Positions 5,787 through 31,939 of a stretch of DNA of 64,000 bases are shown here, in pieces. The stretch comes from Bdellovibrionota bacterium. GTDB taxonomy: Bacteria; Bdellovibrionota_C; UBA2361; CAKMMH01. The stretch is taken from the NCBI GenBank assembly GCA_050952645.1, contig JBMNLI010000017.1, positions 339,526 through 403,525 on the forward strand, read 5' to 3'. A program made the translations under genes and the position numbers. Each line of letters starts with the position of its first letter. Within the stretch, counting starts at the first letter, position 1. Below the pieces are notes generated by a model. The model was not told the origin of the DNA. It saw only the letters and a program-made list of their open reading frames with translations, and searched no databases.

Positions 5787-6653
5787 TCACATTCTATTTT
5801 TCATTATACCTATAAAATATTTTAAATTATCGAAAGTTAGCAAGTTATCTAGAGACCTCAACTTTTCTATTAAACTATAAATCTTATTTTCACTATTTTT
5901 TAAAGCCTCTAACCCCTTTTCTTTGCTTGCAACATTAAAGATAGTAAATTTTTCATTTTTTTCATCGCTACTTTGCGGTTTTCCCCTACTTTCTTTAGTT
6001 CCAAAAATATCTATATAATCATCTATTATTTGAAAATATACACCTATCTTAGCACCTAATTTTAATGCGATTTGAGTAAAATCTTCGTTTTTTTCTCCTA
6101 TTATACTAGCAAACCCGAGAATGGCTTTGAAAAGCCCCCCAGTCTTTAACTCATAAATCTTTAACAGTGAAGCTTTTTTTTGCTCATTTTCTAAAATATC
6201 TAATTGTTGACCGTTGCATAGCTCTAAAAAGGCGTTAGATAAAACGGCACTTAACTTAACTTTAATATCATCACTATAAGAGCTTTTAGCAATAGTTTTA
6301 AGCGCAAACATAGGCAAAAAATCTCCTGCTAATATTGCAGAAGCTTCCCCATAAGCTTTATGACAAGACGGGCTCCCTCTCCTAAAATCATCATCGTCAA
6401 AAGCTGGTAAATCATCATGAATAAGCGAAGCGCAATGTAAAAACTCTATCGCAATACTAGCTCTTAACGCTATATTAGGGTCTTTTTTTAAATCTTCCAT
6501 TAGTGCTAACACCATTAAAGGCCTTATTCTTTTACCAGCAGGAAATATAGAGTAATAAACGGCGCCTTTCATAGGTTCTTCTATTGCTTGCGCATCTAAG
6601 ACGCTTTTTAACTCTTCTTCAATTTTTTCTAAATAAAAATTATTGTTAAACAT
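5787..6653 (-). CDS. ispA: Polyprenyl (geranyl/farnesyl) diphosphate synthase
   Basis: GKRIRP, LIHDDLPAFDDDDFRRG, GQQLD, KTG and FQIIDD motifs. Confidence 0.9.
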   Translation of the reverse strand: MFNNNFYLEKIEEELKSVLDAQAIEEPMKGAVYYSIFPAGKRIRPLMVLALMEDLKKDPNIALRASIAIEFLHCASLIHDDLPAFDDDDFRRGSPSCHKAYGEASAILAGDFLPMFALKTIAKSSYSDDIKVKLSAVLSNAFLELCNGQQLDILENEQKKASLLKIYELKTGGLFKAILGFASIIGEKNEDFTQIALKLGAKIGVYFQIIDDYIDIFGTKESRGKPQSSDEKNEKFTIFNVASKEKGLEALKNSENKIYSLIEKLRSLDNLLTFDNLKYFIGIMKNRM

Positions 6654-6740: not shown

Positions 6741-6920
6741 TTATATCATTTCACGATAATAATTTATGTCGTTTCACGAGCATTACTTATCTCATTTCAC
6801 TATAAAATATCGCCATTAAAAACTAACGTGAAACGACATAAGAATAATACTTAAAAACCTAAAACCAACTATCGTGAAATGAGATAAAAATTAAAAATAG
6901 ACTAACGTGAAATGAGATAA
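6741..6920. repeat. Auxiliary iteron cluster: 3 reverse and 3 forward copies of CGTGAAAYGASATAA
   Basis: Reverse copies at 6741, 6764 and 6787; forward copies at 6827, 6873 and 6906. Confidence 0.8.
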
Positions 6921-7227
6921 AAGAATATATAAAATTATAAGCTCTTATCTTACAAATATTTTACTTAAAGTTTGTACAAAAAAAACCATGTCTTTAAAAA
7001 CTATGTCTTTAAAAAAATGTCGTTAAAAAAATATCGATATTTTTTTTAAATTTCTTATCAAAGCATATTCTACTTTTTATTTAAATATATCAATATATAT
7101 ATGTACAAAAAATAAAAGACTAAACTCTAAACTGCACAAAAGGAAAACGATTTAGGGACAAAGAAAATAAGGAATGGGACATATTAAAGAAAAAAAATAC
7201 ATAACAAAATCAAGGCATTATGCCGAC

Positions 7228-7244
7228 TGTCCCACGGCGGGACA
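7228..7244. promoter_or_regulatory. Candidate parS palindrome TGTCCCACGGCGGGACA
   Basis: GC-rich 17-bp near-palindrome in AT-rich DNA downstream of parB; second copy at 7723. Confidence 0.55.
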
Positions 7245-7722
7245 ACCTGCAAAGGGGAAGATCTTTACCCTACTTTCCTTGCTTAATGATCAAAGAGAGC
7301 CTTTTCTTTATTTTAAAAACAAAAGAGATGTTTTATTTAAAAAAATTAAGCAGCCACTAAAGAAAAAATGCCTACTTAGCATTATTAGACTAAATGCTAC
7401 TAACTAGCACGATTACCTTAAAAATTAGCTTAAGTAGATATCTTGTCTTTACATAAACTAAAAACGAAACTAAAAACGACATGAAAAACCTTGCTAATAT
7501 TCCATATAAATTTAGCTTTTTACAACCAAAGGTGTTTATAAAAATACTAGAAAGACGCTAAAAAGACGCCTGTTTTTAGTAAAATTAACTTTAAAAATCT
7601 CGCACTAGTTTCTAGCAAACTAGAGCTACAAAACTAGCTTAATAATAGAAGAAAAACCTAAGTCAAAAACCCCATAAAAATCCTCTAGTTAGTCCTTTAA
7701 AACCCGTTTGGCAATGCGCAGA

Positions 7723-7739
7723 CGTCCCCCCGTGGGACA
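7723..7739. promoter_or_regulatory. Candidate parS palindrome CGTCCCCCCGTGGGACA
   Basis: Its reverse complement TGTCCCACGGGGGGACG matches the 7228 copy at 15 of 17 positions. Confidence 0.55.
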
Positions 7740-8224
7740 AGCAAGCGAAAGTAAATAAATAAAACTCCATGAATCTTCACTTTTAAAATAGCTAATTAAA
7801 ATAGCAAGAAATGTTTTTTTTAAAGATGAAATTAAAAAGAAATTAGCTTAAGATTAAAAGAATTGCTTAAAATTATGGTTATATTAAAGTATTTTATATT
7901 TAGCAAAACCTTTTAAAGATCAATTTTCTTTACTACCTTTTTATTGTTTGTTCTTTATTGTTTGTCCTTTATTGTTTGTCCTTTATTGCTTGTTCTTTAT
8001 TATTTATTCTTTATTGCTTATTATTTGCTACCTTATAGCAGATAATGCTAATTTTAAGAGCTAAAACTACTTTTAAAGGTTTAAAAACCATTTTTTATGG
8101 CGATTTTTTGGCGATTTTCTTTTAGTTAGAGAAAATATTAGAAGAAAAAAACGAATCTTATGCACCTAGAAACACCTAGCAGCGTAAAAATAACTCGCAT
8201 TTTGGTGTTTATATTAGTGAGGCA

Positions 8225-9097
8225 TTACACTTCAGACATAAGCTTTCTGTAAACTATTTGAAGATCATCGGTCCGTATAGAACTCTACGACTAGCTTTCC
8301 ACTATCACTATTAGGCGTGCGGTTTACTTTTACCTTTAATCCTAGTGCAGAGCGAAGTTCGTTTTCTAATCTTTGCGTGCTTCTGCTCTAAATGCCTTAC
8401 TTCTTTTACTCTTTTTTGCCCATTATAGCCGTTTTTAGTATAGCCTGGTTCTAAGTGAATCTCTTGAAATTGTGTTTATTTCGCTTAAGTAAACTGCTCC
8501 TCTCTTCTTTAGTTGGAATATTAGCTAAAAGCAACACTTTAGACTCTGAATGACCTTTTTCTTAATGCTTCTATAAGGTCATCTGGTAAATTTAATATAT
8601 CTAAAGATCTTTGAACGGAACTCTTAGAGATACTTAGCTTACTAGCGATATCACGAACGCTTTAAATTGTAAGCATCTCGAAGAGATGCTATAGCAATAG
8701 CTTTTTCATAAGAATTTAAATCTACTCTCTGTAAGTTCTCAACTAGTTGAACTTGCAAGATTTCTTCATTATCTGTTGATTGGTACTACGACTACTGGAA
8801 CTTTTGCAAGACCTGCTAATTTTGCCGCCCTTAATCTTCTTTCTCCTGCTACTAACACGAAACCGTTTTTTGCTTCTCTAACGGTTAAAGGTTTGTAAAA
8901 TTCCATAATGATTTTATAGATTCTGCACAGTTTCATTTAACTTTTTCTTCATCGAAATCTTTTCTAGGTTGAGTTTTATCTAATTGTATTAAATCGACTA
9001 GAATTTCCTTGTAAGGTGTTGAAATCTCTTGCCTTTCTTTTAACGCTGGTCCTGCAAAAAGAGGATTATTTGCTAGATTAATTTTCTTTGCTGCCAT
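8225..9097 (-). CDS. parB: ParB/Spo0J partition protein (many 1-nt indels; not in the ORF track)
   Basis: Manual translation across frames: QPRKDFDEE, VAGERRLRAAKLAGL, QLVENLQRVDLNSYEKA, HTH IASKLSISKSSVQRSL, GKLVVEFY; AGGAG SD before the ATG at 9097. Confidence 0.9.
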
Positions 9098-9167
9098 TAA
9101 ATTTTACTCCTATTATCAATTAGTTATCATCAATTATTTATTATCAATTTATTTATTATCATTATTA

Positions 9168-9965
9168 TTAATTATTATTATTATCGCTATCAACTTCGTT
9201 AGCTAAATCTCTATAATCGTCTGCCCCTCTTTCTTTTGGAGCATATTCAAAGATCGTTTGTCCATTAGATGGCGCTTCAGCGAGTGCAACATTAGTTTTT
9301 ATTACAGTTTCAAAAAACCAAATCTCCAAAATACGATCTAATAGTATCTGAAATGGCTCTAGCTAATTTTCTTCTATTATCGTGTAAGCAAATAAGCACC
9401 CCTCTAACCTTAAGCACTGGATTAAACACGCTTCTTACTTGGTCTATAGTATCTAAAAGCTGGCGAACGCCGTGAAGTGCTAAATATTCGCTTTGAACTG
9501 GTATTATAACGCTATCTGCTGATGCTAAAGCGTTAAGCGATAAAAGCCCTAAAGCTGGCGGACAATCTATAATAACGTAATCGTAATTACTTTTAATTTT
9601 TTCTAATGCTCTTCTTAAAATAAGCTCTCTACCTACGATGCCCCCAAGTTCTAAGTCTGCCGCACTTAATGATAAACTAGAGGGGATAACATCTAAGTTT
9701 TGAGACCTATGAACGACACATCTTCTACAGTCCTTAGTCCCCCTTAATATATCGTAGCTTGAAGGTATTCTATATCCTCTATGCCCTCTTGAAAGTCGCC
9801 CTCTTGCACCCCAACACCTAAATGCGTCGTCATATTACTTTGTGCGTCCATATCAAAAAGCAATACTTTTCTGCCTTTTTCTGCTAAAGCTGCACCTAAA
9901 TTTACGGTAGTTGTAGTCTTTCCAACCCCACCTTTTTGATTGATTATTGCGATAGTCGTAGTCAC
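9168..9965 (-). CDS. parA: ParA/Soj ATPase (frameshifted)
   Basis: GTG start with [51 protein letters not shown] and [14 protein letters not shown] read across frames. Confidence 0.92.
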
Positions 9966-10174
9966 TATTATCCTCCTAAAGGGAAATGAAATTAAGCTAG
10001 TATTAGTAAGCAATATTTTTGATATATTACTAATATTTATCACTAATATTCACACTAATATTAAAGCTAATTATCGAGTGAATAAAATAAAATAACTAAA
10101 GATTTTAGCTAGTTATATATAATTTATATATAAAAAACTTGTGCTAATATTTACTTTAATATTTAATTTAATAT

Positions 10175-10530
10175 TTATGTCAATGCACGTCTTATATTAT
10201 ATATCAAAACACGATAAAAAAACAACAAAATAAGTTATTTAAACTTGAAATATCCCCGCATAATATACTTTAATTATAATTTTATCAAACTTAAATTATC
10301 GTGCATTGACATAAAGATTGTATCGTGAATTGAAAGAAAATCTAGCTAAAATTACATCTTATTGTGATCTCAAATAAACAATCGTGTTTTGAAAGAAGTT
10401 AGATGCGTGATTTGAAATAAGTTTATTCGGGATTTGAAATAAGAATGTTAGTGAATTGAAATAACAAAAATCGTGAATTCAACATAAAAATAACGTGAAT
10501 CGAAAGAAATTTTATAGTGAACTGAAATAA
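10175..10530 (+). repeat. Iteron array upstream of rep, consensus (C/A)GTGAWTTGAMAKAA; probable replication origin
   Basis: Direct copies at 10300, 10324, 10363, 10383, 10406, 10428, 10450, 10472, 10494 and 10516 (last six exactly 22 bp apart); inverted copies near 10175 and 10199. Confidence 0.85.
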
Positions 10531-10662
10531 ATAATCTTAATTAACCTATTGAATATATTGCAAAAAATTTTCGCTTACTAAATAACTAGTAAACTATAAT
10601 AAACTTGATAAACTTACAAAAAGTTAGTATGTTTATTAAAGATTTAATTTATAATTTTTTTT

Positions 10663-12200
10663 ATGAAAGAAAAAAAGCAGACCTAAAACAATTACGATCT
10701 CTAGAGATGAAATGAACTTAGCAGAATTTCCATTAGCAGTTCTTTCAACGAGAGTTAATCCTAATATTAAAACTTTAGAGTTTCAGGATACCATATACAC
10801 GAAAGATAAAAAACCTATTACTAGAAAATGGATAATAACTGGAGCAGATAAATTTGGACTTCCTACATCTTCAGACGATGAGGTTTTAATGGACTTTTAA
10901 AACTTACTGCCGATCAAGATTTTAAAAGTCAAAAATAGAGTTTACTAGATATGAACTTTTGAAAGTTTTAAATTGGACGACTGAGGGAAGAAGCTACACA
11001 AGATTACAAAAATCGCTAGATAGGCTAAGTGGTGTAAAATAAAAGCGGCTAATGCATTTTTTGATAATAAAACTAAAGAGAACTGCACAAAGCTTTTTGG
11101 ATAATCGATGCTTATGAAATAAACAGTGGGAGAGGAGATCAAACTCAACCTAGTTATTTTATTTGGGGAGAAACTATTTTCGATTCATTTCAAAAAGGAA
11201 ATATAAAAAGATTAGACTTAGATTTTTATTTAAGTTTTAAAAGTGCTATCTCAAAAAGATTGTATCGATATTTAGATAAACATTTTTGGCAAACAAATAG
11301 AATAGAAATAGATTTATTTAGGTTAGCGTACGAAAAAATAGGGATTAGTAGAAATTTTAAGTATGCAAGTTCCTTAAAGCAACAATTAGAGCCTGCCATA
11401 ATGGAATTGCAAGAAAAGAATTTTATAAAAAATTTGAGTTTACAGGAAAGGGGGCCCTTTTCGAAAGTTATATTTTACAAGACTGGCACTACACAAACTT
11501 GTTTAGGGCAGACTTGTTTAAGTGGGGGCTTCTTCAGCGTTAAACAATTTGCAATCTAACGATTCGCAATTGCAAGAGGTAGAGGCAAGAGTAATCGATA
11601 TTACGCCTTATGATGCAAACTCTTTTGAGGGAGATAATTTAATTCGGATATAACGCAAAGGCTTCTTTTAAGGGGGATAAAAGAGGGGCAAATAAAAAAA
11701 TTATTACGTGGCAAATCTCATAAAAATTTAGTAAAGATATCGAATATAATTTTATATTTTGATGATTTACTAGCTAGAAAGAGTGTCTTAGTAAGTAGGA
11801 GCCCAGTAGGGTTTTTATATAGAGCGGTTGAAAAGGAAGAGCAGTTTTATTTACCTAAAGAATATACTCAAGAGAAAGGGAAAAAGAAGAATCAAGAAAC
11901 TAAAGAAAGCAAAAATATCAAGAAAACAAAAAGCGAAGATATTGAAAAATTAAAAAGCATATATCTTGCCGAAAGAAATAATCAAATAGAAGAAATTAGA
12001 ACTGAGATGGAGAATAGTGTTTTACAGTCCATAGAAAAAGAGGGCTAGAGAATCTTTAAGTAATATGAAAGGGGGTTATATCTTCTAAGCATTTTGAAAA
12101 GGCTATAATTGACAAGGTAAATGATAAGATTGCTTCTCTTTTTGCATTAGCAGATTTTGATGAATGGCTTCAGGAAAGAAAAAGTGCAAAAGCGGTTTAG
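10663..12200 (+). CDS. Replication initiator protein A (RPA family, planctomycete-plasmid-like), about 510 aa, frameshifted
   Basis: DEMNLAEFPLAVLS, FGLPTSSDDEVL, FTRYELLKVLNW...GRSY.RL..SLDRL, LDLDFYL...SAISKRLYRYLDK joined across the fragments 10712-10900 and 11260-11559 and intervening frames. Confidence 0.8.
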
Positions 12201-12357: not shown

Positions 12358-12855
12358 ATGTCTGTTTATAAATTGAATAAAGATTTTACTGCTAAAGAAG
12401 TGCAAGCTATTTTAAGAAAACTATCTAAAGGAAAAGAGAAGATAGGTTTAGCGCTTCTTAATTACTATGCTAGGACGGATTTAGTTGCGCCAACGGGGCA
12501 GGGGGTTATTAGGCAAAGAAGAAAGTATTCGCATTCAGATTTAATATTACTTTGTTGGCTTTTTAGAATGAAAGATGAGGGGCTACCAGTCCATAGGTTT
12601 AGAAGTGGTATCGATTATTTAAGAAAAAAAATTCCTTCCTTATATGAGAATCCTAGAGATATGGTTTTATTAACCGATGGTAAAGAGCTTTTTATAAAGC
12701 ATAGAATAGAGGACAAAGGTCAAATCGCTGAAGTCCTAACTGGCGAAAAAGCAGGTCAATACGTTTGGGCCTACGCTATAGGGTCGTTAATAGAGGAAGT
12801 AGAGCAGATTATAGAACAGCAGGCTAAGGAAGAGTTAGGGCAGAAGAAGGCTTAA
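12358..12855 (+). CDS. MerR-family HTH regulator
   Basis: LNYYARTDLVAP...RRKYSHSDL...GLPV MerR HTH pattern; C-terminal LLTDGKELF. Confidence 0.75.
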   Translation: MSVYKLNKDFTAKEVQAILRKLSKGKEKIGLALLNYYARTDLVAPTGQGVIRQRRKYSHSDLILLCWLFRMKDEGLPVHRFRSGIDYLRKKIPSLYENPRDMVLLTDGKELFIKHRIEDKGQIAEVLTGEKAGQYVWAYAIGSLIEEVEQIIEQQAKEELGQKKA

Positions 12856-13436: not shown

Positions 13437-13976
13437 CTAATACACTAAATTCTGGGGAATGGGCGGAGCTTTACGTATTTTTACAATTCTTTTTAAACCA
13501 TTTTTTAAAAAACTTTTCTTTAATTGGCTAATTTTGTCTACAAATAGAATTCCATTTAAATGATCTATTTCATGTTGCAAGCATATAGCAAAAAGTTTAG
13601 TCGCATTTATAACTTTTTCTTCTCCACTTAAGTCTTGATATTTAACCGTTATATTTTCGCTTCTTTTTACAATCTCGCGATACTGTGGGACGCTTAAACA
13701 GCCCTCCTCAAAAGTTATAGTTCCAGATTTTTCTATTATTTCAGGATTTATAAAAACAAAAGGCTCTCTTTTTCCATCTTCTTGTAAATCTATTACGATT
13801 ACTCGTTTAAGAATTCCAACTTGAGGAGCAGCTAGTCCTATACCATTATTTTCATACATCGTTTTTAACATATCTTCAGTAAACTTTTTAAGGTCATTAG
13901 AAAAATCTACTACGGTTTCCGAAATTTCATTTAATAAAGGGTCTGGGTATGTATACAATTTTAAAGTTTTCGCCAT
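13437..13976 (-). CDS. def: Peptide deformylase
   Basis: GIGLAAPQ, EGCLS and QHEIDHLNG; the extreme C-terminus may be frameshifted in a T-run. Confidence 0.97.
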   Translation of the reverse strand: MAKTLKLYTYPDPLLNEISETVVDFSNDLKKFTEDMLKTMYENNGIGLAAPQVGILKRVIVIDLQEDGKREPFVFINPEIIEKSGTITFEEGCLSVPQYREIVKRSENITVKYQDLSGEEKVINATKLFAICLQHEIDHLNGILFVDKISQLKKSFLKNGLKRIVKIRKAPPIPQNLVY

Positions 13977-14140
13977 TTTAAAAATTTAATTTCCTTTTTT
14001 ATAATTTACTTAACAAACAAATACATTATACTATAACTTTACGAGTTTATAAATAAAATTTTTGTTAATTTAAATAGTTCTTTTAAAACTTTAAATTGCA
14101 AGCCTAAAAGATTATGAGCAATAAGATTATGAGTAATTAG

Positions 14141-15175
14141 ATGAGTAATAGTAGAAAATTTATTCTTATTTCTGTTTTAATTTATATTTTAATAATAGTC
14201 GTTTTTTTTATATTAAAAAACTTAAGTCCTTTCGATACATCTATCACAATTTCAATACTTCAATACGCTCTAGCCTTTTTGCTTTTAATATTCTTAAATA
14301 GTAGTTATATAAAAAAGAAAGAAATTTTTTCAAAGTTTGCACTAAGGCTAATAACGGTAGTTTTATGCGTATTTTTACTGACAGAGTTCTATTTTACAAA
14401 CTTTATCGACACAAAAATTGTTCAAGCCCGTTTTTTAAATGATTCTTTTGAGATAAAATCTAGAGTTCTAAGAGAAGCCATCAATCAAAGGATTTCAGAT
14501 AGCACTTTAAGAGTAAAGAGATACCCATTTTTTATAGAAAAAAATAATATTTCAGATTGGCTTAAAAAAAATGGCAAAGAAATTTTAATATGGGGCGATG
14601 ATAAGTTTGTTAATCTTTCCTTTAGAAAAAAAAATAACTTTAGCTTAGGTCTCTTAAATATAGATTACCAAAATAGCGATTTAATTATAATAGAAGATGT
14701 GCAAAATGTAAGAATTCCTTACGAGCCCGTAAAAGCTACAGTAGCGTATATAACTAATATTTTATATAAATTAAAAAATGATAATTTTAAGTTAAAGCTA
14801 GTAGGGAAACAAAAATTTAAATGGCAAAATAATTCTCATACGGCTTACCCTTTACTTCTCTTAGGAAACCATTATTTAAAAGATTACATAAAAAGTAATA
14901 ACAAATATTATTTAAGGCATGCTATAAAGCATTATGAAAAAGCCTTAAGTTTTATAAGAGTAAAAGATAATGAGCAAATATATTTTGCATTAGTAAATAA
15001 TTTAATGGTTAGTTACTACGTAAAATATTTAAATACTGCGAAAATAAAACATAAAAAGACCGCCAATGCTTTATTTAAGAAAAATTTTTTTATAGACCAA
15101 AATATAAAATCTAATATTCCAATCGATATGAGACTTATCTTTATAGAAAATAAGCTTCTAATAAACTCACTATAA
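14141..15175 (+). CDS. Hypothetical membrane protein (3 N-terminal TMs, possible C-terminal TPR)
   Basis: Hydrophobic segments; LLLGNHY...AIKHYEKAL TPR-like pattern. Confidence 0.6.
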   Translation: MSNSRKFILISVLIYILIIVVFFILKNLSPFDTSITISILQYALAFLLLIFLNSSYIKKKEIFSKFALRLITVVLCVFLLTEFYFTNFIDTKIVQARFLNDSFEIKSRVLREAINQRISDSTLRVKRYPFFIEKNNISDWLKKNGKEILIWGDDKFVNLSFRKKNNFSLGLLNIDYQNSDLIIIEDVQNVRIPYEPVKATVAYITNILYKLKNDNFKLKLVGKQKFKWQNNSHTAYPLLLLGNHYLKDYIKSNNKYYLRHAIKHYEKALSFIRVKDNEQIYFALVNNLMVSYYVKYLNTAKIKHKKTANALFKKNFFIDQNIKSNIPIDMRLIFIENKLLINSL

Positions 15176-15314
15176 AATAAGCTAGCTATAATAACGAGAT
15201 TGTTTTAAAAATATATCATAGCACTTTAACAATTGACGTTTAAAAGCTCCCACAAAAAACATCGCTCTAAAAAGTGCTATGAAATATGGAAATAGGGAAG
15301 TGTAGTATAGGAAT

Positions 15315-16874
15315 TTATAAGTAATCGCCAGAGGTAATTTTTATTAGTTCTTTTAGTATGTCCTTAGCGATTTTAATAGTAGAAAGAGAAATAGTATTAT
15401 TGTTTGGGTCTGTAAAAGAGGCGTAAATTACGCCAGTGCAATAATTACGAATACCAATTGGCACTGCTAAGCAAGAGGTGTCCTTAGGCAATATTAAAGT
15501 TCCATAAGTCGTGATTTGACCATTAAAATAACACTTAGAAGCAACATTAGGCGACGTTATATTGATAGGAATAGTAATATCCGCAGGGTTGATATCAGCT
15601 ACATTATCTCCTATAATCGCATGCCCTTGAAACTTAGTTTTATCTGCATTAGCTACCAGTAGTAAAGCTCTTTCAAAGTTAAGACTAAATACTAAAGTTT
15701 CCATAATTTTAGTTATTATTGAAGTAATCGGTTCATCGCTATGAATGCTTTCATCGATTTGTTTTAAATAATCATCAACGGTTAAGTCGTTTAAATCATT
15801 ATTAGTTAAATCATTATTAGTTGAATCATTATTAGTTAATTTATTATTAGTTAAATCTGCAATAGTTAAATTATCAATAGTTAAAATTGATGTAGGCTGA
15901 GGCGTTAAATTTATATTTAAATCTTCTTTGGTGCTAATTTTTGGTAGCTTAGTATTTATTTTAGGTAAATCGATTTTCATAGAACTACAATACTCAGGAA
16001 ATTCTTTTGTAAATATTTTAAAAGAGTTTTGAAGAGTATTTTCTGGTATTTCATATTTTTTAGAAACATTTTTAATGATAGTCTCGAAATTATCGTCTAG
16101 AGGTTGTCCCATAATGGTGCTAGATATATCTTGCGCTGCAAGTAAGTTTTTAATCAATTTTTGTTCTCCACCTAAAGCCTTTAAACTAAGAGTATTGTTT
16201 TTAAAGTTCATAGCCACGGTTATCGAAGAAGTGTAAATTGCTGGGATTTTTAAAGAGTCGAGTACTTCTAAACTTATCTCTAGAGGCTCAAAGCCTGTTA
16301 GTTCTTTTATCGCATCATCTAATGGGATATTTAAATTTAAGCTTTTTTGCAAAGCGTTTTCAAAAAGCTTTGGAAAGTAATAAGCAGTTAACATTAAGCC
16401 TAGCTCTGAAAAAGTGCCAAGAAGATAGCCAGTTTCTTCATCTTTAGATTTACTTCTTACATTTGCCGAGTTTAAAATGCTAGTAAAAAGCGATGTGGTG
16501 ATAAGCTTTTCTAATGTCAAAGCAAAGTTTTCGTTTTTTTTGCTTTCTGGTAAAAATTTTTGTATTAGCGTAAAACTTGAGCAAAGCTCGGCGAGTTGTT
16601 TAAGTCCCATGTGGATAATAGCTTGGCTAATGGTAGTTATAGGAACGCCACGCTGGAAAAAAGCGCTATTTACGAAATTTAAAATTTTAGTAGAAAGAGT
16701 TGGGTCTTTTAAAATGTATTCAGTTAATTTACTAGATGGTGCGTTAGGATTGTTAGTCAACCCGACAAGCTCGTTTATAGTTTTAGTGCAAGCTGGAAAG
16801 TCTCCGCTAGTTTGGAGTGCTTTTTTTAATTTCTCTATAAATTGGTATTTAGTGATACTTAAATTATCTTCCAT
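15315..16874 (-). CDS. HDOD-domain signalling protein with a GAF-like C-terminus
   Basis: ILKDPTLSTKILNFVNSAFF...TISQAIIHMG; C-terminal LAVPIG...GVIYA. Confidence 0.85.
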   Translation of the reverse strand: MEDNLSITKYQFIEKLKKALQTSGDFPACTKTINELVGLTNNPNAPSSKLTEYILKDPTLSTKILNFVNSAFFQRGVPITTISQAIIHMGLKQLAELCSSFTLIQKFLPESKKNENFALTLEKLITTSLFTSILNSANVRSKSKDEETGYLLGTFSELGLMLTAYYFPKLFENALQKSLNLNIPLDDAIKELTGFEPLEISLEVLDSLKIPAIYTSSITVAMNFKNNTLSLKALGGEQKLIKNLLAAQDISSTIMGQPLDDNFETIIKNVSKKYEIPENTLQNSFKIFTKEFPEYCSSMKIDLPKINTKLPKISTKEDLNINLTPQPTSILTIDNLTIADLTNNKLTNNDSTNNDLTNNDLNDLTVDDYLKQIDESIHSDEPITSIITKIMETLVFSLNFERALLLVANADKTKFQGHAIIGDNVADINPADITIPINITSPNVASKCYFNGQITTYGTLILPKDTSCLAVPIGIRNYCTGVIYASFTDPNNNTISLSTIKIAKDILKELIKITSGDYL

Positions 16875-16886
16875 TTATTTTTATTT

Positions 16887-17219
16887 TTAATTTACTAATT
16901 TAATTTTATTGTCAGCTATAACCTCTAGCTTGTTTTGAACTTGTTTTAAGATTTTGAAATTAGTAGTTTCTAGTAAAACTTGGTATCTTTCTTTTAAATT
17001 ATCATACTCTTTTTGGAGAAACATTCTGTCTGATAGCGTTAAATTTTTTCTACTTAAGTTTACGATAATCTCTTTCATGTAGCTAATTAGTAGCTTTAAC
17101 TCTTGAATATTTTTAGCACAAGCGTTATGTTCTTTCATATCATTGAGTAAGCCTAGCCTTTCTAGTGCGTTTCTAAACTCAGGATTTCTTAAATCGTATT
17201 TTGGTAATTTACTACTCAT
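16887..17219 (-). CDS. Hypothetical protein resembling part of the flagellin N-terminal domain
   Basis: MKEIIVNLSRKNLTLSDRMFLQKEYDNLKERYQVLLETTNF compared with the flagellin pattern MRELAVQA.N.T.S.SDR..IQ.E...L...I..I..TT.F. Confidence 0.5.
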   Translation of the reverse strand: MSSKLPKYDLRNPEFRNALERLGLLNDMKEHNACAKNIQELKLLISYMKEIIVNLSRKNLTLSDRMFLQKEYDNLKERYQVLLETTNFKILKQVQNKLEVIADNKIKLVN

Positions 17220-17638
17220 AATTTAACCTTAAATATACTTAGCCTTAAAAAAATATAAACCTTAAAAATTAACTCTTTTTTAAACTTTTTTTAAACTTTT
17301 TATAATATTTGTAATAATTTCTACTTTTATATTCGATGTTATTTTTTTACTAATAGTTTCTTTTTAAGTATTTATTTTTCTTATAAAAAAACTCTATTTT
17401 AGAAAGGTTAAATGAAAAACATGCTAGAAATCAAATAGTGGTATAAATGCAAGTAAAAAACCTTTAAAAATTTAAAAAAAATTAAGAAAGGCGTTAATGA
17501 AAAAAATTAAAGTTTCCGACATATAAAATTGTGAATAAATTTTGATACTATTTTTTTTAAGTTAGCATCAAAACTAAAAGAGAATAAATTTATTCTTTAT
17601 TTTTAAATATAATTTTTTATATAAAGGAGATCGTAATT

Positions 17639-18019
17639 ATGAAACAGAAAGGTTTTACGCTAATTGAGCTATTAGTAGTAGTTGCTATTATCGGTATCTT
17701 AGCAGCAATCGCAATCCCTCAATTTGCAGAATATCGTGCTAGAGGTTTTGACTCTCGTGCTAAAAGTGATTTAAGAAATGTTGCTACAGCTGAAGAAGCT
17801 TACTTTGTAGATAATGAAAAATATGTTTCTTGTTCTCAAGATGATTGTCATACAATATTACCAGGAATTAAATCACTATCTTCAGGAGTAACTTTAACAA
17901 TTACTGCTAGTTCAGACGGAAAAACTTTTACAGGAACTGCTACTCACGATAAAGGAACTGGCGTTACTTGTAATTGGGATAGCGATGCTGGTGGCTTAAC
18001 TGGTTGCACAAAATCATAA
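17639..18019 (+). CDS. pilA: Type IVa major pilin
   Basis: KG|FTLIELLVVVAIIGILAAIAIPQF; strong SD; monocistronic with a terminator. Confidence 0.9.
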   Translation: MKQKGFTLIELLVVVAIIGILAAIAIPQFAEYRARGFDSRAKSDLRNVATAEEAYFVDNEKYVSCSQDDCHTILPGIKSLSSGVTLTITASSDGKTFTGTATHDKGTGVTCNWDSDAGGLTGCTKS

Positions 18020-18076
18020 TAATAACTTTTAAAAAAGTTTTTAAAATAATTAAACTTTTTTAGTTATTTAATTTAT

Positions 18077-18125
18077 AAGCTAAAGTGTAGTGTATAAGTT
18101 ATATAATTACGCTTTAGCTTTTTTT
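18077..18125 (+). terminator. Intrinsic terminator after the pilin gene
   Basis: AAGCTAAAGTGTA/TACGCTTTAGCTT stem followed by a T-run. Confidence 0.7.
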
Positions 18126-18322
18126 ATTTCTTCTTTATCTCTTCTATTTTATCTTTTTTATTTAATTTCTTCTATTTAATTTCTTCTATTTATTCCCTTA
18201 TCTTTATTTTTTAAATTATTTTTTAAATTATTTTTCTATATATTCCTATATATTTTAAAAGAGTTATGCTTTATTATGTTAGAATATATTTTGTCTACTT
18301 TTTTTGGGGAGTTTGATATTTT

Positions 18323-18853
18323 ATGTTAAAACGTAAAAGTGCAAATAGTTTCTTGTTTTTTATAACGCTATGTTTAGCGCAAATATTTTTTACTGAAAAT
18401 GCCTTTGCTAAAAAGCAAACTTTAGGTCTTATTGAAAAAGCCTTGATACTACCTGAAAATTTAGTAGTCGATGCAAAGTTAGATACTGGGGCCGATTCTT
18501 GTTCTTTACACGCTGATGACATAAAAGAGTTTGAAAAAGAAGGAAAGAAATTCGTTAAATTTACCATAGTCGATAGATATGGAAAAAAAAGAACAGTAAT
18601 TAAAGAGATAGTTAGGCACGTTAGGATAAAAAGATTAAATAATAAATCGCAAATTAGAAAAATGATAAATATCGGTTTATGTCTAGGCGATGTTTATAAG
18701 ATAGCAGAGGTGTCCTTAGTAGATAGAGGTGCTTTTAATTATGAAATGCTTATAGGCAGAAGATACTTATCTGGTGATTTTATAGTAGACCCTGCGATAA
18801 CGTATACGGTAGACCCTAATTGTAATATAGAAAAAGAAGAAAAGAGTAATTAA
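18323..18853 (+). CDS. RimK-associated putative protease (aspartyl-protease-like fold), exported
   Basis: AKLDTGADSCSLHA and VSLVDRGAFNYEMLIGRRYL; signal peptide. Confidence 0.85.
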   Translation: MLKRKSANSFLFFITLCLAQIFFTENAFAKKQTLGLIEKALILPENLVVDAKLDTGADSCSLHADDIKEFEKEGKKFVKFTIVDRYGKKRTVIKEIVRHVRIKRLNNKSQIRKMINIGLCLGDVYKIAEVSLVDRGAFNYEMLIGRRYLSGDFIVDPAITYTVDPNCNIEKEEKSN

Positions 18854-18899
18854 AAAAAGTAAGTATTTTAGAGAAATATAAAATCAGGAATATAAAAGA

Positions 18900-20432
18900 A
18901 TGAAAATGAATGCATATCAACATTATAAAATAGCGCTTATTATATTTATTCCAAGCTTCTTATTTTTTTTATATAAGGTTATTTTTTTAAAATTTCCATT
19001 AGTGCCGAATAAAGATGCCGTATCTTATACGATAGAAGCTAGATTATCTTTTAAGCCTCGATATAAAACTCCAATAAGAATAAAAATGTATCTACCACAG
19101 TCTAAAGATTCCTTTGTAATAGTAGATGAAAACTTTCTTAAAAAAGGGGCTTACGGGGAGGCTATAAATAAAGTAGGGGATAATAGGATGATAAACTGGA
19201 CTAAGAGCGAAGCTAGCGGAGAGCAATATTTTTTTTACCGCGCCGTAGTTCAAGAAAGTTCTTCTTATTCAGATAGTAAAGAAATAAAAAAGCCGTCTTT
19301 TGCTGTAAACGAGTTTATAGGCTCTCAAGTTTTAGCTGCTAATGCCTTAATAGAACATGCGAAAGCTCGCTCGGCAGACGAAGAGTCTTTTATTTATGAG
19401 CTAATAAAAGTAATTTTAGGAAACTCTTATGAGCAAGAGTTAAACCATCTTTTAGAGGGCGACCATTCAGAGTTAAAAAAAGTAGAACTTGCAGTTTCGC
19501 TTCTTAATATGGTAAAAATCCCAGCAAGGGTAGTCCATGGGGTAGAGTTAAAATCTGAGGCTCGTGATGTGAAATTACAGCATTGGTTTGAGGTATTTAG
19601 TAAAAATAGAGTTTCTAATTATCGTATGAATAGTAAAGAGTATAAAGTGCCTTACAATTATTTTCCTTGGTATAGGGGTAAAAACTCGTTAGCATATATT
19701 TCAGGTGGAACTAATATGCATATAAGTATTTCGATAAGAAAAAATGTAGAAAGTGAAATTTCTAATGTAGTATCTGAAGAGAGAATAAAGCGTCCGACGT
19801 TATATAAGTTTTCATTATTTAATTTGCCATTAGATATGCAACGTGTGTTTCAAATTTTACTATTATTTCCATTAGGTGCGATAGTGGTGGTGATTATGAG
19901 AAATATAGTAGGATTAAATAGTTTAGGAACGTTCATTCCAGTGCTTATAGCTATATCATTTAGGGAAACTAGGCTTATAAATGGAATACTTTTATTTTCT
20001 GTAATCATATTTTTTGGCTTATCGGTTAGATTCTTTTTAGATAGGTTAAAATTATTATTAGTCCCAAGGCTAACGGTTGTATTATCTAGCATTATAGTTT
20101 TTATTTTATTAACTAGCATGCTGATGCATAATTTAGGTTATGAAAGAAATGTATCGGTAGCATTATTTCCTATAATTATTTTAACCATGGTTATTGAAAG
20201 ACTATCTATTATTTGGGAAGAGCAAGGGTCTACAAAAGCTATCAAGCTTTGCATTTCTACGCTACTTATTGCTACGGTTATATACGTAATTATCACAAAC
20301 CCAATAGCATCGCATTTAGTATTCGTTTTCCCAGAACTTTCGCTATGCTTTATAGCTATCGCATTAAGTTTAGGGCGCTACACTGGATATAGGCTTTCAG
20401 AGTGTTTTAGGTTTGCAAGTTTATTAGATTAA
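18900..20432 (+). CDS. Inactive transglutaminase fused to a 7TM domain
   Basis: RNIVGLNSLGTFIPVLIAISFRET and LGRYTGYRLSE; typical gene context. Confidence 0.88.
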   Translation: MKMNAYQHYKIALIIFIPSFLFFLYKVIFLKFPLVPNKDAVSYTIEARLSFKPRYKTPIRIKMYLPQSKDSFVIVDENFLKKGAYGEAINKVGDNRMINWTKSEASGEQYFFYRAVVQESSSYSDSKEIKKPSFAVNEFIGSQVLAANALIEHAKARSADEESFIYELIKVILGNSYEQELNHLLEGDHSELKKVELAVSLLNMVKIPARVVHGVELKSEARDVKLQHWFEVFSKNRVSNYRMNSKEYKVPYNYFPWYRGKNSLAYISGGTNMHISISIRKNVESEISNVVSEERIKRPTLYKFSLFNLPLDMQRVFQILLLFPLGAIVVVIMRNIVGLNSLGTFIPVLIAISFRETRLINGILLFSVIIFFGLSVRFFLDRLKLLLVPRLTVVLSSIIVFILLTSMLMHNLGYERNVSVALFPIIILTMVIERLSIIWEEQGSTKAIKLCISTLLIATVIYVIITNPIASHLVFVFPELSLCFIAIALSLGRYTGYRLSECFRFASLLD

Positions 20433-20468
20433 GATTTAAGATATAGTAAGAATGTAGAGTTTAAATAG

Positions 20469-21434
20469 ATGGATATTTTTAATAAAGCAAATATTTTAAA
20501 TAGAATGAAGTTGTTAAAGGAAAGAGGCGTTCTTGGATTAAATGCAAGGAATGCTGAGATTATCTTGCCTCAAAACGAAAGGAGGCTTTACCCTTTAGTA
20601 GATGATAAAGTGAAAACTAAAGAACTAGCGATGGCTAATAATATTCCTGTGCCAGAGATGTATTACGTAGTAAGGAGTCCTCGTGAAATAAAGACGGATT
20701 TTTTTAATGCTATAAGACCGTATAAAGAGTTTGCAATAAAGCCAGCTCATGGGCAATGTGGCGAGGGAATTATAATAGTATCGGATGTAGTAAATGAGCA
20801 CTACAAACTTATAGACGGCACGAGAATGACTAAAGAGGATATGATTTATGCACTCTCTACGATAATGAGCGGAGTTTTTAGTTTAGGTGGGCAACTAGAC
20901 CAAGTGTTAGTAGAGTATAGAATTAAGTTTGATCCTGTGTTTGATGATATAACGTTTAGGGGAGTGCCAGATATAAGAGTTATAACTTATAGGGGAGTTC
21001 CTGCGATGTCTATGCTTAGGCTTCCTACTAGCTACTCGAACGGGAAAGCTAATTTGCATCAAGACGGTATTGGAGTTGGAATAAATATAAGCACTGGAAA
21101 ATCGATGAAAGCAGTGTTTAGAAATCAAATAATTACTATACATCCAGATACTTTTGTAGATATTCAAGGGATTCAAATTCCGTATTGGGATAAGATTTTA
21201 GAGCTAGCATCTAGAAGCTATGAGGTGACTAATCTAGTTTATCAAGGCGTGGATATCGTAATAGATAAGGATTTAGGCCCTCTTATTTTAGAGTTAAATG
21301 CACGTCCTGGTTTAAATATTCAAATCGCAAATCAAAAAGGTATTCGTCATAGGCTAGAGTTAATAGATAAGCACAAAGATAATCTTAATACTTTAGAAGA
21401 AAGATTATCTTTTGCTAAACAATATTTTGTGTAA
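20469..21434 (+). CDS. Alpha-L-glutamate ligase-like ATP-grasp protein
   Basis: GVLGLNARN, YPLVDDKVKTK, GKANLHQ and LELNARPGL. Confidence 0.9.
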   Translation: MDIFNKANILNRMKLLKERGVLGLNARNAEIILPQNERRLYPLVDDKVKTKELAMANNIPVPEMYYVVRSPREIKTDFFNAIRPYKEFAIKPAHGQCGEGIIIVSDVVNEHYKLIDGTRMTKEDMIYALSTIMSGVFSLGGQLDQVLVEYRIKFDPVFDDITFRGVPDIRVITYRGVPAMSMLRLPTSYSNGKANLHQDGIGVGINISTGKSMKAVFRNQIITIHPDTFVDIQGIQIPYWDKILELASRSYEVTNLVYQGVDIVIDKDLGPLILELNARPGLNIQIANQKGIRHRLELIDKHKDNLNTLEERLSFAKQYFV

Positions 21435-21468
21435 GTTTGTATAAGTTCATATCAGAAAGAATAATTTT

Positions 21469-22110
21469 ATGTTTAAGAATAATTCTAAAATAGTATTAGC
21501 ATCGAGGTCTAAAAGGCGCATCGATTTTTTAAGAATGTTAGGAATAGAGTTTGAGATATGTGTAGGAAATGTAGATGAAGATAAATATAGAGATATGATC
21601 CCTAGCAAAATGGTAGAGAAGCTTTCATTAGAAAAGGCGAAAGCCGCACTTAAAGAATACAAGAAAGAGTTTAGAAAAAAAAATGGTAAAGAAAAGCTTA
21701 CAGAAGATTTAGATATTTGGTTTATAGGTGCCGATACGGATGTATCTTTAGGAGATAAATCTTTAGGGAAGCCTAAAAATTCTAGTGATGCCTTTAGGAT
21801 ATTAAAAACATTAGAGGGGAAAACGCATCAAGTGTTTAGTGCTTTTTCGCTTATAAATGAAAAGTTAAGAGTAAAGGAAGTGTTTTTAACTAGCAGTGAT
21901 ATTACGTTTGCTTCTTTATCAGATGATATTATTAAGGCGTATATAAATACGCATGAGTGTTATGATAAGGCTGGGGCTTATGCGCTTCAAGGCATTAGTA
22001 GTGCGTTTATAAGTTCGGTCAATGGCTCTTATTCTAGCGTTATAGGGCTAGATATGAACTTGCTTCGAGAAAAGCTGTTAGAATATGGTGTTATAGAGTG
22101 TAGGGGTTAG
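21469..22110 (+). CDS. maf: Maf-family nucleotide pyrophosphatase
   Basis: LASRSKRR, IGADT and DKAGAYALQG. Confidence 0.92.
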   Translation: MFKNNSKIVLASRSKRRIDFLRMLGIEFEICVGNVDEDKYRDMIPSKMVEKLSLEKAKAALKEYKKEFRKKNGKEKLTEDLDIWFIGADTDVSLGDKSLGKPKNSSDAFRILKTLEGKTHQVFSAFSLINEKLRVKEVFLTSSDITFASLSDDIIKAYINTHECYDKAGAYALQGISSAFISSVNGSYSSVIGLDMNLLREKLLEYGVIECRG

Positions 22111-22126
22111 GGGGTAAAGAACTAAT

Positions 22127-22156
22127 TTGACAATACACTCAATTAAATATTATACT
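22127..22156 (+). promoter_or_regulatory. Sigma70 promoter TTGACA-N18-TATACT
   Basis: Near-consensus; followed by a hairpin at 22160-22196. Confidence 0.6.
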
Positions 22157-22415
22157 GATCTAATGGTCTTAATTTGTTTTTTACTTAGGTCATTAGAGCC
22201 TTATCCTAGGTTTTAAAAATGCAATATTTCCACTAAGCAGTGAAAGGAAGAAAATGGTTGCACTGATAAGAAGAGCCATAAATGTTTTCACCAAAGGCTT
22301 TTAAAAAAAGTTCTTAAGCCTTAAGGGTAAATCTTTTTTTCTAAAACGATTATCGATATTTTTTTTAAAAGTTTTTTTATAAATTTTACCATAAAGAAAA
22401 GAAAGGAAGACTTTA

Positions 22416-22903
22416 ATGTCTGCTAAAAAGGTGGGAAAATCATACTTAATATTTTAAATATAAAGCACCTTATCGAATGTTGTGGCGAGCCAGAAGCTTA
22501 TTATGATAATACACGGCATACTATAATTTCAAAGGATGGTGATTGGGTATTCGTTATAAGAGACGATGATCCCTATAAGCAATTATGCTATAGAAAGAAA
22601 GACTTTTTCAAAAATTTTCAAATTGCAAAATCTCAAGTTGAAGGTGATAAAAAATATGTAAAAAATGATCCTACTAGTTTATTTTGCATCAAAATTGGAA
22701 GTAAAGTGCGAATTTCTACAATAGAGCATATTATGCAAAAAGGTGACATTGTTTTTCTTAAAAGAACGAATGAAAGACGTGTTGTTAGCGAAATTCCTAT
22801 ATTTATAGGTAGCTATTTTGGGCTTCACGGTGATTCTAGCTTATCTTTCTTAAATGCGGGTGCCACTCTCATTCTAGTGAAAAATAAATCACTATTAAAG
22901 TAA
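22416..22903 (+). CDS. Hypothetical protein of about 162 aa (frameshift in an A-run near the start)
   Basis: AAGGAAG SD and ATG at 22416; open frame 22427-22903 includes track ORF 22706-22903; downstream C-tract/G-tract hairpin. Confidence 0.55.
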
Positions 22904-23194
22904 AATTATTGAAAACTTTTTCAAGCGACTAAAAACGCCCCCCCCCCGAAGCTAAAGGCTATTAACGAGCGTAGCTTTTAGGGGGGGAGCTTTTCTTTTT
23001 TCTTTGTTTTATTTTCTTTTTCTATAAATTTACCTTTAAAATTAGTCTTTTTTGATGTAACCTAAAACTTATAATTAGCATAGATATATTAACGTATTAT
23101 ATTTTCTTTAAGATATTCTTTAAGGGATTTTCTCTTTTATTTTTAAGAGATTAATATACTAAATAAACATTATTTTAATTCAAGGTAATAAAAA

Positions 23195-25729: not shown

Positions 25730-25811
25730 CTTAAGATAATTTAAAAGTCTAAAAACAGTTATATAAATTACTAAATAACTATTAAATAATTATTAAACAA
25801 TTACTAAGCGT

Positions 25812-25906
25812 ATAGCATACGTAAATACGTATTCGTTAAAAAAAGGCAAATACTAGTTTTAGGCTAAGTTTTAGCTCTTAAAAACATAGCATACGTAAAA
25901 CAAGAA
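25812..25906. repeat. Repeat family B copy between convergent leuS and valS
   Basis: ATAGCATACGTAAATACGTA...ATAGCATACGTAAAACAAG, similar to 1646-1741. Confidence 0.7.
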
Positions 25907-25960
25907 AAAGTTTAGGTTTTGTGGTTTTAATTTTATAAATATATCTTTTATAAATATTTT

Positions 25961-28666: not shown

Positions 28667-28932
28667 ATTTTTTTTACCTAGTTTACAAGTTTAATTGTAT
28701 TAGAATTTTATTTTTTAAAGCTTAATTTTACAAGCTTTTTTTTAGTTTATAAAGATATATAATTGATATATAAGTATTTAACTCTCTTTTTTGGTTAAAG
28801 GCAAATCTCTTGATATGGTATTTTAAAAAATATATTATTTTATAGCACTAATTTTACAGTATAAGTTTTTTCTAGTATAAGTTTTTCTAGTGCATAATTT
28901 AGTAAAAGTATTTCTTTTTAAAAAATATTTAT

Positions 28933-29540
28933 ATGAAATTTCTTTATTTTGATTTAGATAAAAATGTAGATAAGAAAACAGGTGATACTATAGAGAGAGT
29001 AGAGAGCTTTCTTAAGTTATTATCTAAGGAGGAAATTTGTAAAGCAGATGGTATAAAATCTAAAAAAGAAAGATGCAATATATTGTAGCAAGGGGGCTTT
29101 TAAGAAGTTATTTAAGTAAAAAATTAAGTAAGCCTAGCAGTGAGATAAATATAAGTGTAGCAAAAAACGGTGCAATTTTAGTGCATGAGATTTATAACGA
29201 TAGTAAAATTTTTGCTAGTATTTCTCATAGTGAAAGTAAGGTTATCGTAGCGTTAGATAATTTTCCACTAGGTGTAGATGTAGAATATAAGAAAGAGCGG
29301 AAAGATTTTTTAAAACTAGCTAAGTATGCGTTTAATGAAAGAGAAGAGTTTTTGAAAATTAAGAACGCTAAAACCCCTAAAATGCAAATGGAGCTTTTTT
29401 ATAAGGGTTGGACTAAAAAAGAGGCCTTATATAAATTAAATTCTTTATTAGAAAATTATAATTTTAAGCTAGACTCGCAAAAAATAAAATTTATCGAAAA
29501 AAAACTTTTTGATAATTACGTAGTTATGGTAGCTAGGTAA
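28933..29540 (+). CDS. Sfp-type 4'-phosphopantetheinyl transferase (frameshift near 29072)
   Basis: SISHS, LGVDVE and WTKKEALYK; an upstream frame from ATG 28933 supplies LLSKEE..KA. Confidence 0.8.
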
Positions 29541-29892
29541 AAAAGGGTAAAGAGAAGATAAAGAGAAGATAAAGAAAAGAGAAAGAGAAGGCAAAGAAAA
29601 AAAAGGGGAAAAGAAAAAAGAGGAGCCAACCAAAGAAAATAAAAGTAAAAGTAAAAATAAAAGTAAAGGCTTTCTCTTAAAAATAATCGTAGATGTAAAT
29701 GTTGATGTAAACTAATGTAAATGTAAAAAATTATTTTTTTGATTATAATTTTATTATCTTTTAAAATAATCTATTAACGTATTTGTAAATATGGGGAGAA
29801 AAGCACACTTTGTGTTTTTTATAGTGTTTTTAAATCAAGGTTAGTTTTCACCATCCTAACGCTTAAGGAAACTTAAGTTTAGGAGAAGTTAA

Positions 29893-30007
29893 ATGTCTGA
29901 TAACCAAAACAACCAAGAGTCCTTTAAAGGCGGGCTTCAAGCGTTTTTAACATCTAAAAACGGTATTTAGAAAGGCTTTTGGGTTTATTGTTCCTAAAGA
30001 CTCCTAA
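29893..30007 (+). CDS. Possible small protein (25 aa as read, about 37 aa if an A-run indel is corrected)
   Basis: AGGAG SD; MSDNQNNQESFKGGLQAFLTSK...; ends before a bidirectional terminator. Confidence 0.35.
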
Positions 30008-30074
30008 GTCGATTTTTTCGATTTAGTTTTCTTTCTTTAAAGCTTAAGCAAAAAATTAAGCAAAAAACGTAAAC

Positions 30075-30133
30075 AAAAAAGAAGCCACTTTGTACTTTAT
30101 AGGTTTTTTAAAACACAAAGTGGCTTCTTTTTT
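30075..30133. terminator. Bidirectional terminator
   Basis: AAAAAAGAAGCCACTTTGT/ACAAAGTGGCTTCTTTTTT perfect stem. Confidence 0.8.
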
Positions 30134-30151
30134 TATTTTTTTTATTTTTAA

Positions 30152-31513: not shown

Positions 31514-31939
31514 AATAATTATCCTTATAAAATAAAAAAATTGAAATTAAATAAATTTTACTAAATAAATTTTTAAGCTTTAAAAATGTAAAAAAGATAT
31601 TCGATAAAAATCTTTTTAGGGAATATTTTTTAAAAGTTCTTTGTCGAATAACTTTAAGTTTCCTTAAGCTTAAAATTTTTTCTTTAGCGTCTAAGCTACA
31701 TTTCATATTTTACTTGCTATGGAGATAAAGGACAATAAGCTTTTTTTGTGTTAGTTTTATATTGTGTATAGAATAATTAAGAATTTTTACAAATTGATAA
31801 TTAAAGAATATAAAGTAAAAAAGGACTTTAAGTTTCAATATAGTTTTGCTTAAGCATTTCTATAGAAAATGATTGTTTGATATGATATTTTTAATTAAAA
31901 AATTGTTTTTTGCTTATTGCTTTAAATGGAAATATATTT

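Follow-up and report, generated by a model that had tools for sequence, protein, structure and literature searches.

Replicons based on iterons are started by tandem winged-helix initiators, whose monomers bind phased iterons and melt an AT-rich element, and outlying iterons limit initiation. A DnaA box in the origin is usual for replicons of the F, P1 and RK2 type, and the iterons of Vibrio chromosome 2 contain Dam GATC sites. Here, we analyse a locus with a rep gene, iterons and a parABS partition system at positions 6741–12200 of a 64,000-nucleotide stretch of DNA (the window, meaning the whole stretch) from a Bdellovibrionota bacterium (GenBank assembly GCA_050952645.1, contig JBMNLI010000017.1, positions 339,526–403,525). 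A preliminary description had offered three readings of it: a chromid with unusually core genes, a plasmid-derived Rep origin that starts the main chromosome, or an integrated replicon. We conclude that it is a plasmid-type origin and partition locus, which probably replicates a separate, essential chromid, inherited vertically throughout this uncultured lineage, beside a normal DnaA chromosome.

Three criteria for chromids are quoted in the accessible parts of two papers (PMC12456017, PMC6090056): plasmid-type replication and partition, chromosome-like composition, and core genes. Chromids are conserved mostly within genera and sometimes across families, according to the available portion of PMC13342612, and those with the initiator RctB are described, in the available portion of PMC8826520, for Vibrionales and Plesiomonas. 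The available text of a 2025 chromid survey covers eight phyla, and this lineage is not among them (PMC12456017). For Deinococcus radiodurans, the accessible text of PMC7671480 attributes the cis repeats to binding of DnaA and ParB and reports no known initiator. UBA2361, the lineage of the source genome, was transferred together with Oligoflexia to Bdellovibrionota_B in release 226, as stated in the available part of PMC13200544. The literature that we searched gave no account of a chromid, two chromosomes or a multipartite genome for this lineage; subscription papers and supplements could hold one.

Organization of the origin and partition locus

The window makes up the final 64 kb of contig C17 (403,525 bp) of the source genome, G000, which comprises 1.95 Mb in 17 contigs (93.75% complete, 0.98% contaminated, guanine plus cytosine (GC) content about 31%). 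We compared it with a first set of 40 relatives from 21 families and with 80 rep loci kept from the 169 found in GTDB, some counts requiring enough flanking sequence. The well-assembled genomes used were G000, G016 (5 contigs) and G048 (the same genome as G041; 3 contigs, 5.1 Mb, 95% complete, from another order than G000). Auxiliary iterons, two palindromes, parB, parA, phased iterons and an RPA-family (PF10134) rep gene were all found where the preliminary description had placed them. The rep gene (10663..12200) is on the forward strand, and parA2 (9168..9965) and parB2 (8225..9097) are on the reverse strand. The parB-parA-rep part of the gene order proposed earlier held in 57/57 loci with enough flank, parA2 and parB2 always being divergent from rep, whereas the MerR-like gene included in that order stood beside rep only in the family of G000.

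The iteron-like 17-mers follow the consensus WTCGTGAATTGAAATAA. The origin array (10298..10530, forward strand) consists of nine strong copies and one weak copy in direct orientation, mostly 22–24 bp apart, and a strong and a weak inverted copy, at 10175 and 10199, lie upstream of parA2 (10175..10215, reverse strand). Three inverted and three direct 17-mers, back to back, form the auxiliary cluster (6741..6920), which likely exerts control by titrating Rep. A matrix trained on 11 window sites found iterons 5' of rep in 74/75 loci, at a density of 506 sites in 67.5 kb upstream of rep against 307 in 810 kb of flank, about 20 times higher. Among the short spacings, 158/194 fell within 1 bp of a multiple of 11, 22 bp being the commonest (84 cases), and the consensus built from 390 sites contains no GATC. 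The whole of G000 gave 44 matches with a score of at least 13: 16 in the two window clusters, 7 on contig C16 and 21 scattered. The group on C16 (46,200–47,250), considered as a further iteron locus, was rejected, as it is an array of clustered regularly interspaced short palindromic repeats (CRISPR) whose repeat end resembles the matrix. Apart from this array, no iteron cluster was seen elsewhere in G000 in a check for a crtS-like trigger, which a non-iteron trigger would escape. A weak iteron-like site within parA, at window position 9379, recurs at a similar place in many relatives (uncounted) and may merely reflect conserved codons.

Beyond the array, an AT-rich stretch (10531..10662; 81% AT measured over 10531–10700) is likely the DNA-unwinding element, and an AT excess past the iteron array was found in 73/73 loci. 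No DnaA box within one mismatch occurs in the window origin (10051–10720), as had been noted before, and such boxes are not enriched at rep origins in general (present in 16/75 loci, compared with 15.4 in shuffles). Two candidate centromere sites, parS2, lie at 7228..7244 and 7723..7739, the former a 17-bp palindrome with one central base and the latter also a 17-bp palindrome. The palindrome, TGTCCCAC(C/G)GTGGGACA, is present in 68/80 loci. With up to two mismatches allowed, the two window sites are the only matches to the consensus in the 1.95 Mb of G000, and in ten whole genomes 24/25 sites are at the rep locus.

The window copies of parB, parA and rep carry many single-base indels and are all frameshifted in the G000 assembly. 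In a same-genus genome parB2 (284 aa) and parA2 (263 aa) are intact, and the profile searches proposed in the preliminary description gave clear matches for the intact same-genus orthologues (ParB_N 98 bits, AAA_31 214 bits, RPA 65.7 bits). For RPA, the intact orthologues scored 65.7 and 69.5 bits against a cut-off of 27, and the broken window copy scored 22 bits. Short-read contigs from four other studies, which cover parts of the cassette, none of them spanning the whole region, differ from it by 0–13 substitutions per piece and by one-base indels; those indels that were listed (12/52) are all in or beside runs of one base. Because the short-read contigs differ by single-base indels there, the frameshifts look like errors of the assembly consensus; dnaA is split in the same assembly too.

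Predicted structure of Rep

A first fold, computed from 13 sequences, was of low confidence at its N-terminus and matched nothing in Foldseek below E 0.001; it was superseded by a model from 117 sequences, in which residues 1–276 reach a predicted local distance difference test score of 82. The N-terminal part is predicted to adopt a tandem winged helix like that of RctB domains 2–3, pi and RepE. RctB domains 2–3 are the best match to the model (Foldseek E 7e-10; Z 14.0, root mean square deviation 5.1, 243 aligned residues), followed by pi (Z 12.9) and RepE (Z 9.2), the only chains with Z of at least 8. By analogy with such initiators, Rep may be responsible for iteron binding, initiation and copy control. 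Residues ~335–519 form a helical, confidently modelled C-terminal part that is kept in the lineage and absent from the plasmid matches. It gave no Pfam match above the cut-off and hit only unnamed Atlas clusters; we regard it as a candidate for cell-cycle control.

Two origins in the source genome

The cumulative skew analysis and the genome-wide search for dnaA and a second parAB had both been suggested in the preliminary description. The cumulative GC-skew minimum of C17 is at 349,825, that is, window position 10,300, at the first iteron. Skew at third codon positions flips at the iterons from −0.06/−0.19 to +0.22/+0.14 on the two gene strands, and because it does so for genes on either strand, the switch is not an effect of gene orientation. 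The same strand-split test retained skew maxima at C12:299 kb and, with few genes, at C17:12 kb. Skew turns at C14:18 kb and C2:40 kb, considered as origins or termini, vanished once third positions were split by gene strand. A dispersed repeat of ~230 bp, with 55 copies in G000, lies 0.2–1 kb from the turns at C2:40 kb, C14:18 kb and C12:299 kb, which could reflect rearrangement or chance; the copy of this abundant repeat nearest to the skew minimum at the rep origin is 46 kb off.

The single dnaA gene of G000 is on contig C9, with dnaN and recF, and a DnaA-box cluster lies between dnaA and dnaN. Contig C11 carries parAB1 (parA-parB) with ten canonical 16-bp parS sites, from which the 17-bp parS2 palindrome of the window differs. 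These ten sites lie within local repeats upstream of parA1 (C11:44,518–45,916). C9 and C11 share 736 bp (99% identity) at their right ends, and the joined stretch has a skew minimum of its own at 66–74 kb. G000 has two origins and two partition systems. Since dnaA-dnaN-recF, the box cluster and the canonical parABS lie at a second skew minimum, Rep is not a replacement for DnaA, and the earlier suggestion of a main chromosome started by Rep is not sustained.

The rep replicon in well-assembled relatives

In G048, dnaA, 16S and rpoB are on contig C1 (3,256,849 bp) and rep is on C2 (1,866,914 bp). C2 looks like a balanced two-arm replicon: its whole-contig skew has a minimum at 584,506, less than 2 kb from the iterons, and a maximum at 1,533,691, 14 kb from the antipode (1,519,857), with a net skew of +960. 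An octamer chosen on C2 was on the predicted leading strand at 58/89 of its C1 sites (p 0.006). In G016, dnaA is mid-way on a 1.25-Mb contig and rep is near the end of a 709-kb contig; skew was negative in 8/8 sampled blocks left of rep and turned at rep. In samples of both genomes, skew also turns at dnaA. A second 16S gene of G016 was found at C1:433,165, on a 544-kb contig. Judged from a 20-kb sample, skew balance would assign this contig to the rep replicon, which perhaps makes up half of the G016 genome.

The composition of contigs carrying rep is close to that of contigs carrying dnaA. In the three genomes GC contents are 31.3 versus 30.1–31.8%, 40.6 versus 39.8% and 56.5 versus 57.2% (within 1.2 points), and tetranucleotide frequencies correlate at 0.98–0.99 (G016 and G048 C1 from samples). 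The left arm of the rep replicon in G000, about 338 kb, suggests a size of about 0.68 Mb. Its estimated share of the genome is ~36% in G048 (measured contig) and ~35% in G000 (twice the 338-kb arm). The two origins are probably on different molecules.

Gene content of the rep replicon

In G000, G016 and G048, the only dnaB gene lies on the contig that carries rep (16 genomes searched, the others being too fragmented), and the sole thrS is likewise there in these three and in G025 and G057 (14 searched). The two genes are stable passengers of the rep replicon. The main dnaE is on the rep contig in G016 and G048 and, in G000, on C10 with rpoB. G048 C2 also carries transfer-messenger RNA (tmRNA) and eight tRNA genes. 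Of its loci, 132 have a homologue in G000, and the 40 of these that were scanned include thrS, lysS, asnS, dnaE, dnaB, efp, rnc, mnmA, tsaD and dnaK as well as mreB, mrdA, rodA, bamA, lpxA, fabZ, accD, dapB, dapF and lptG. C17 is enriched in homologues of G048 C2 genes (41/309 versus 65/1169, p 2e-5).

The preliminary description had stressed core genes, and those are present, but leuS, secA and ssrA are not fixed, being on the dnaA contig in some relatives. We therefore rejected ssrA, secA, leuS and folC as fixed chromid markers, their placement varying among relatives. The position of secA and valS differs among relatives, being close to the DnaA origin in some and to the Rep origin in others, which hints at exchange between the origin regions.

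The rep contigs of G000 (C17:55,656–71,277) and G048 (C2:648–666 kb) share a syntenic F-type secretion-like cluster with TraK-, TrbI-, TraC- and coupling-protein-like genes, 35–61% identical across orders, and further coupling-protein-like genes; no relaxase search was made there. The cluster may be a relic or a repurposed conjugation machine, which would fit descent from a conjugative plasmid.

Distribution and inheritance of Rep

The RPA model matches 39/40 relatives in 21 families; it also matches the control genomes of D. radiodurans and Thermus thermophilus. An alignment of 13 Reps matched 92 of 96 genomes at least 85% complete, including all 73 of high quality, spread over 35 families and at least two orders; the four genomes without a match are 85–87% complete. 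This phylum sample contains same-order and same-class genomes only, that is, it samples one class. One dnaA is present in 39/40 relatives, and at least two ParB proteins in 37/40.

In a quick tree of 34 lineage Reps and two plasmid Reps (two more rows were without sequence), 7/8 multi-member host families each form a single starred clade, and the lineage Reps make up one side of a starred branch with the plasmid Reps outside. The tree follows host families, which argues for vertical inheritance across the lineage as a probable part of the chromid reading. The closest plasmid proteins are planctomycete RPA initiators, 35–41% identical over residues ~13–290, half the length of Rep.

Genes neighbouring the locus

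The fixed neighbour of the module is ispA (5787..6653, reverse strand), found in 54/57 relatives with enough flank. The gene folC occurs in 48/57 rep loci with enough flank and within 8 kb of rep in 57/64 same-order genomes; it is on C1 in G048, and was not found in G000 or in two other family members searched. In the window, the place where most relatives carry folC is a 1.5-kb gap (6654–8225), which contains the auxiliary iterons, both parS2 sites and a 14-bp tandem repeat (7926–8037). A type IV pilin-like gene cluster common to the same family (1823–5520) adjoins ispA.

On the other side of rep, the MerR-like gene (12358..12855, forward strand) encodes a helix-turn-helix protein that scores below the cut-off of Pfam MerR_1. 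It was present in 78/78 genomes with 61–86% identity, nearly always as a single copy, and appears as an unusually conserved lineage-specific regulator. We dropped it as a part of the replicon, given its restricted adjacency to rep and its place on the dnaA contig in G016. Its end, with a strong hairpin (z −3.45), is present in four 123-bp copies at 12786–13272, a tandemly duplicated terminator-like unit. Further along the right replichore (13437..52768) lie the core or single-copy genes def, leuS, valS, ssrA, tRNA-Arg, dapL, dapF and secA. The neighbours named earlier (ispA, def, leuS, valS, secA, dapF, dapL and tmRNA) were thus confirmed, as was the lack of mobility genes nearby: integrase, transposase and relaxase families were matched by none of the 40 window open reading frames scanned.

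Discussion

All three features by which chromids are recognized were found here: plasmid-type replication and partition (RPA Rep, iterons, parAB2 and parS2 at the skew minimum), GC content and tetranucleotides close to those of the dnaA contigs, and core genes (on the rep contig, sole dnaB in 3/3 genomes and sole thrS in five). The chromid option of the preliminary description fits a near-universal cassette at a skew minimum with a separate dnaA origin in the same genome. In the mechanism that we propose, Rep would bind the phased 17-mers, open the AT-rich stretch and start two forks, and the flanking iterons would titrate Rep. Helicase loading would probably also be done by Rep, because DnaA boxes are not enriched. 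ParB2 would load at the 17-bp parS2, a site of its own that differs from the 16-bp parS of chromosome 1, and the two origins would thereby segregate separately.

Several observations weigh against a separate chromid. None of the genomes is closed, and the ends of G048 C2 do not join cleanly, with an insertion sequence at one and a cut gene at the other; the 20 kb seen of the 21-kb third contig showed no bridge between them. On G048 C1 the terminus was not located, and the replichores of this contig rest on five 20-kb samples and one octamer. No convincing dif site resembling the Escherichia coli consensus was found in G000 or on G048 C2, and in G000 the rep contig gives only one full arm, with the rest of chromosome 2 unplaced. 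Gene content is fluid: the dnaA contig of G016 also carries ssrA, secA, leuS, bamA-lolCD and the MerR-like gene, C1 of G048 has leuS and valS, and secA shares a contig with dnaA in 8/39 relatives and with rep in the same-genus genome alone. Single-copy status was checked for dnaB, dnaE, thrS, ssrA, secA, folC and the leu, val and ile synthetases only, and the quick Rep tree leaves the deep branches unresolved. Part of this would also suit a single chromosome, an ancient cointegrate whose two origins are both active, DnaA starting one pair of forks and Rep the other: a closed circle was not seen, the skew of G000, with two minima and two maxima, by itself permits it, and core genes move freely between both origin regions. 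We nevertheless consider a cointegrate unlikely. The rep contig of G048 is balanced alone, its maximum 14 kb from the antipode and its net skew near zero, and a fragment of a fused circle need not be; the dnaA contig of G016 is roughly balanced too, as far as samples go. Moreover, two distinct centromere systems are retained throughout, and dnaA and rep were together on one contig in 0/39 relatives, a weak count as most of these genomes are fragmented.

It is very improbable that Rep drives the main chromosome, with a DnaA origin that is either vestigial or missing. Within contigs, the strongest skew minimum of G000 is indeed at rep, with many essential genes around it, but a single intact dnaA is present in 39/40 relatives, a DnaA-box cluster lies between dnaA and dnaN with a skew minimum alongside, skew turns at dnaA in the G016 and G048 samples, and rpoB and 16S are on the dnaA contig. 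Just as improbable, in our view, are decay of an integrated plasmid and chimerism or mis-binning of the contig, which the frameshifts filling parA, parB and rep in the window might suggest. Independent short-read contigs lack the indels, which lie at homopolymers, dnaA is split likewise, and the orthologues are intact and syntenic in relatives. The rep contig of the same-genus genome carries secA, dapF and dapL as well, and the composition of C17 matches the other contigs. The integrated relic of the preliminary description is likewise not supported, since the cassette is intact in relatives and near-universal in the phylum sample, coincides with the skew minimum in three genomes and tracks host taxonomy.

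Returning to the separate chromid, we lean, with less assurance, towards a history in which the common ancestor of this whole class- or phylum-level lineage took in a conjugative RPA plasmid and turned it into a second chromosome almost on a par with the first. This chromosome would comprise a third to half of the genome, the only replicative helicase and threonyl-tRNA synthetase, often the main DNA polymerase III alpha subunit, a relic F-type secretion system and possibly an rRNA operon (G016), and each chromosome would need the other for copying. If true, this would be the most widely conserved chromid known, and a far older and more essential second chromosome than any described so far. Its presence in 73/73 good genomes of 35 families would mean that a bipartite genome can persist stably across very long evolutionary times, including in cells with less than 2 Mb, at odds with the view of chromids as mainly stores of accessory genes. 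The system would also offer a natural comparison for how a plasmid initiator can be tied to the cell cycle without the GATC iterons of the Vibrio type, and the RPA family gains a defined candidate binding site. Assemblies of this lineage would then not be expected to close as a single circle.

Comparison with known systems

The window locus is not a canonical chromosomal parABS at oriC, as its sites are a different, 17-bp palindrome, nor is it of the repABC type, since rep is divergent from parAB and scores as RPA. Chromosome II and the megaplasmid of D. radiodurans (cisII, cisMP) similarly have direct-repeat arrays upstream of parAB, according to the accessible text of PMC7671480; in the lineage, however, repeats, parS2 and Rep are separate elements.

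By sequence, the closest plasmid relatives are the RPA initiators of Planctomycetes, Rubrobacter, Deinococcus and Thermus. Planctomycete RPA plasmids are small (25–132 kb), and parA(B) adjoins the initiator in the two inspected. Their par genes, in contrast to those of the lineage, are convergent and downstream, no match covers 80% of Rep, and their initiators fall outside the lineage Rep clade. Replicons of F RepE, R6K pi, RK2 TrfA and pPS10 RepA share with the locus the tandem winged-helix initiator, 22-bp phased iterons, an AT-rich element and a nearby parABS. The lineage replicon differs in its megabase scale, chromosome-like composition, essential genes and vertical descent, and its Rep has ~240 extra C-terminal residues without a Pfam family. 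The origin DnaA box of the F, P1 and RK2 type is not a feature of the lineage loci.

Chromosome 2 of Vibrio cholerae is alike in that its iteron origin lies between divergently oriented rep and parAB genes, in having additional control iterons and its own centromere, and in being a bidirectional replicon with core genes. Rep and RctB share the predicted fold only: they are 11–13% identical, Rep belongs to Pfam RPA and is not an RctB orthologue, and the start of its model aligns to RctB residue 182, no counterpart of the first RctB domain being seen. Unlike ori2, the lineage origins have an iteron consensus without GATC and no enrichment of DnaA boxes. Compared with the RctB chromids, the lineage replicon spans the whole class-level sample and carries dnaB and thrS.

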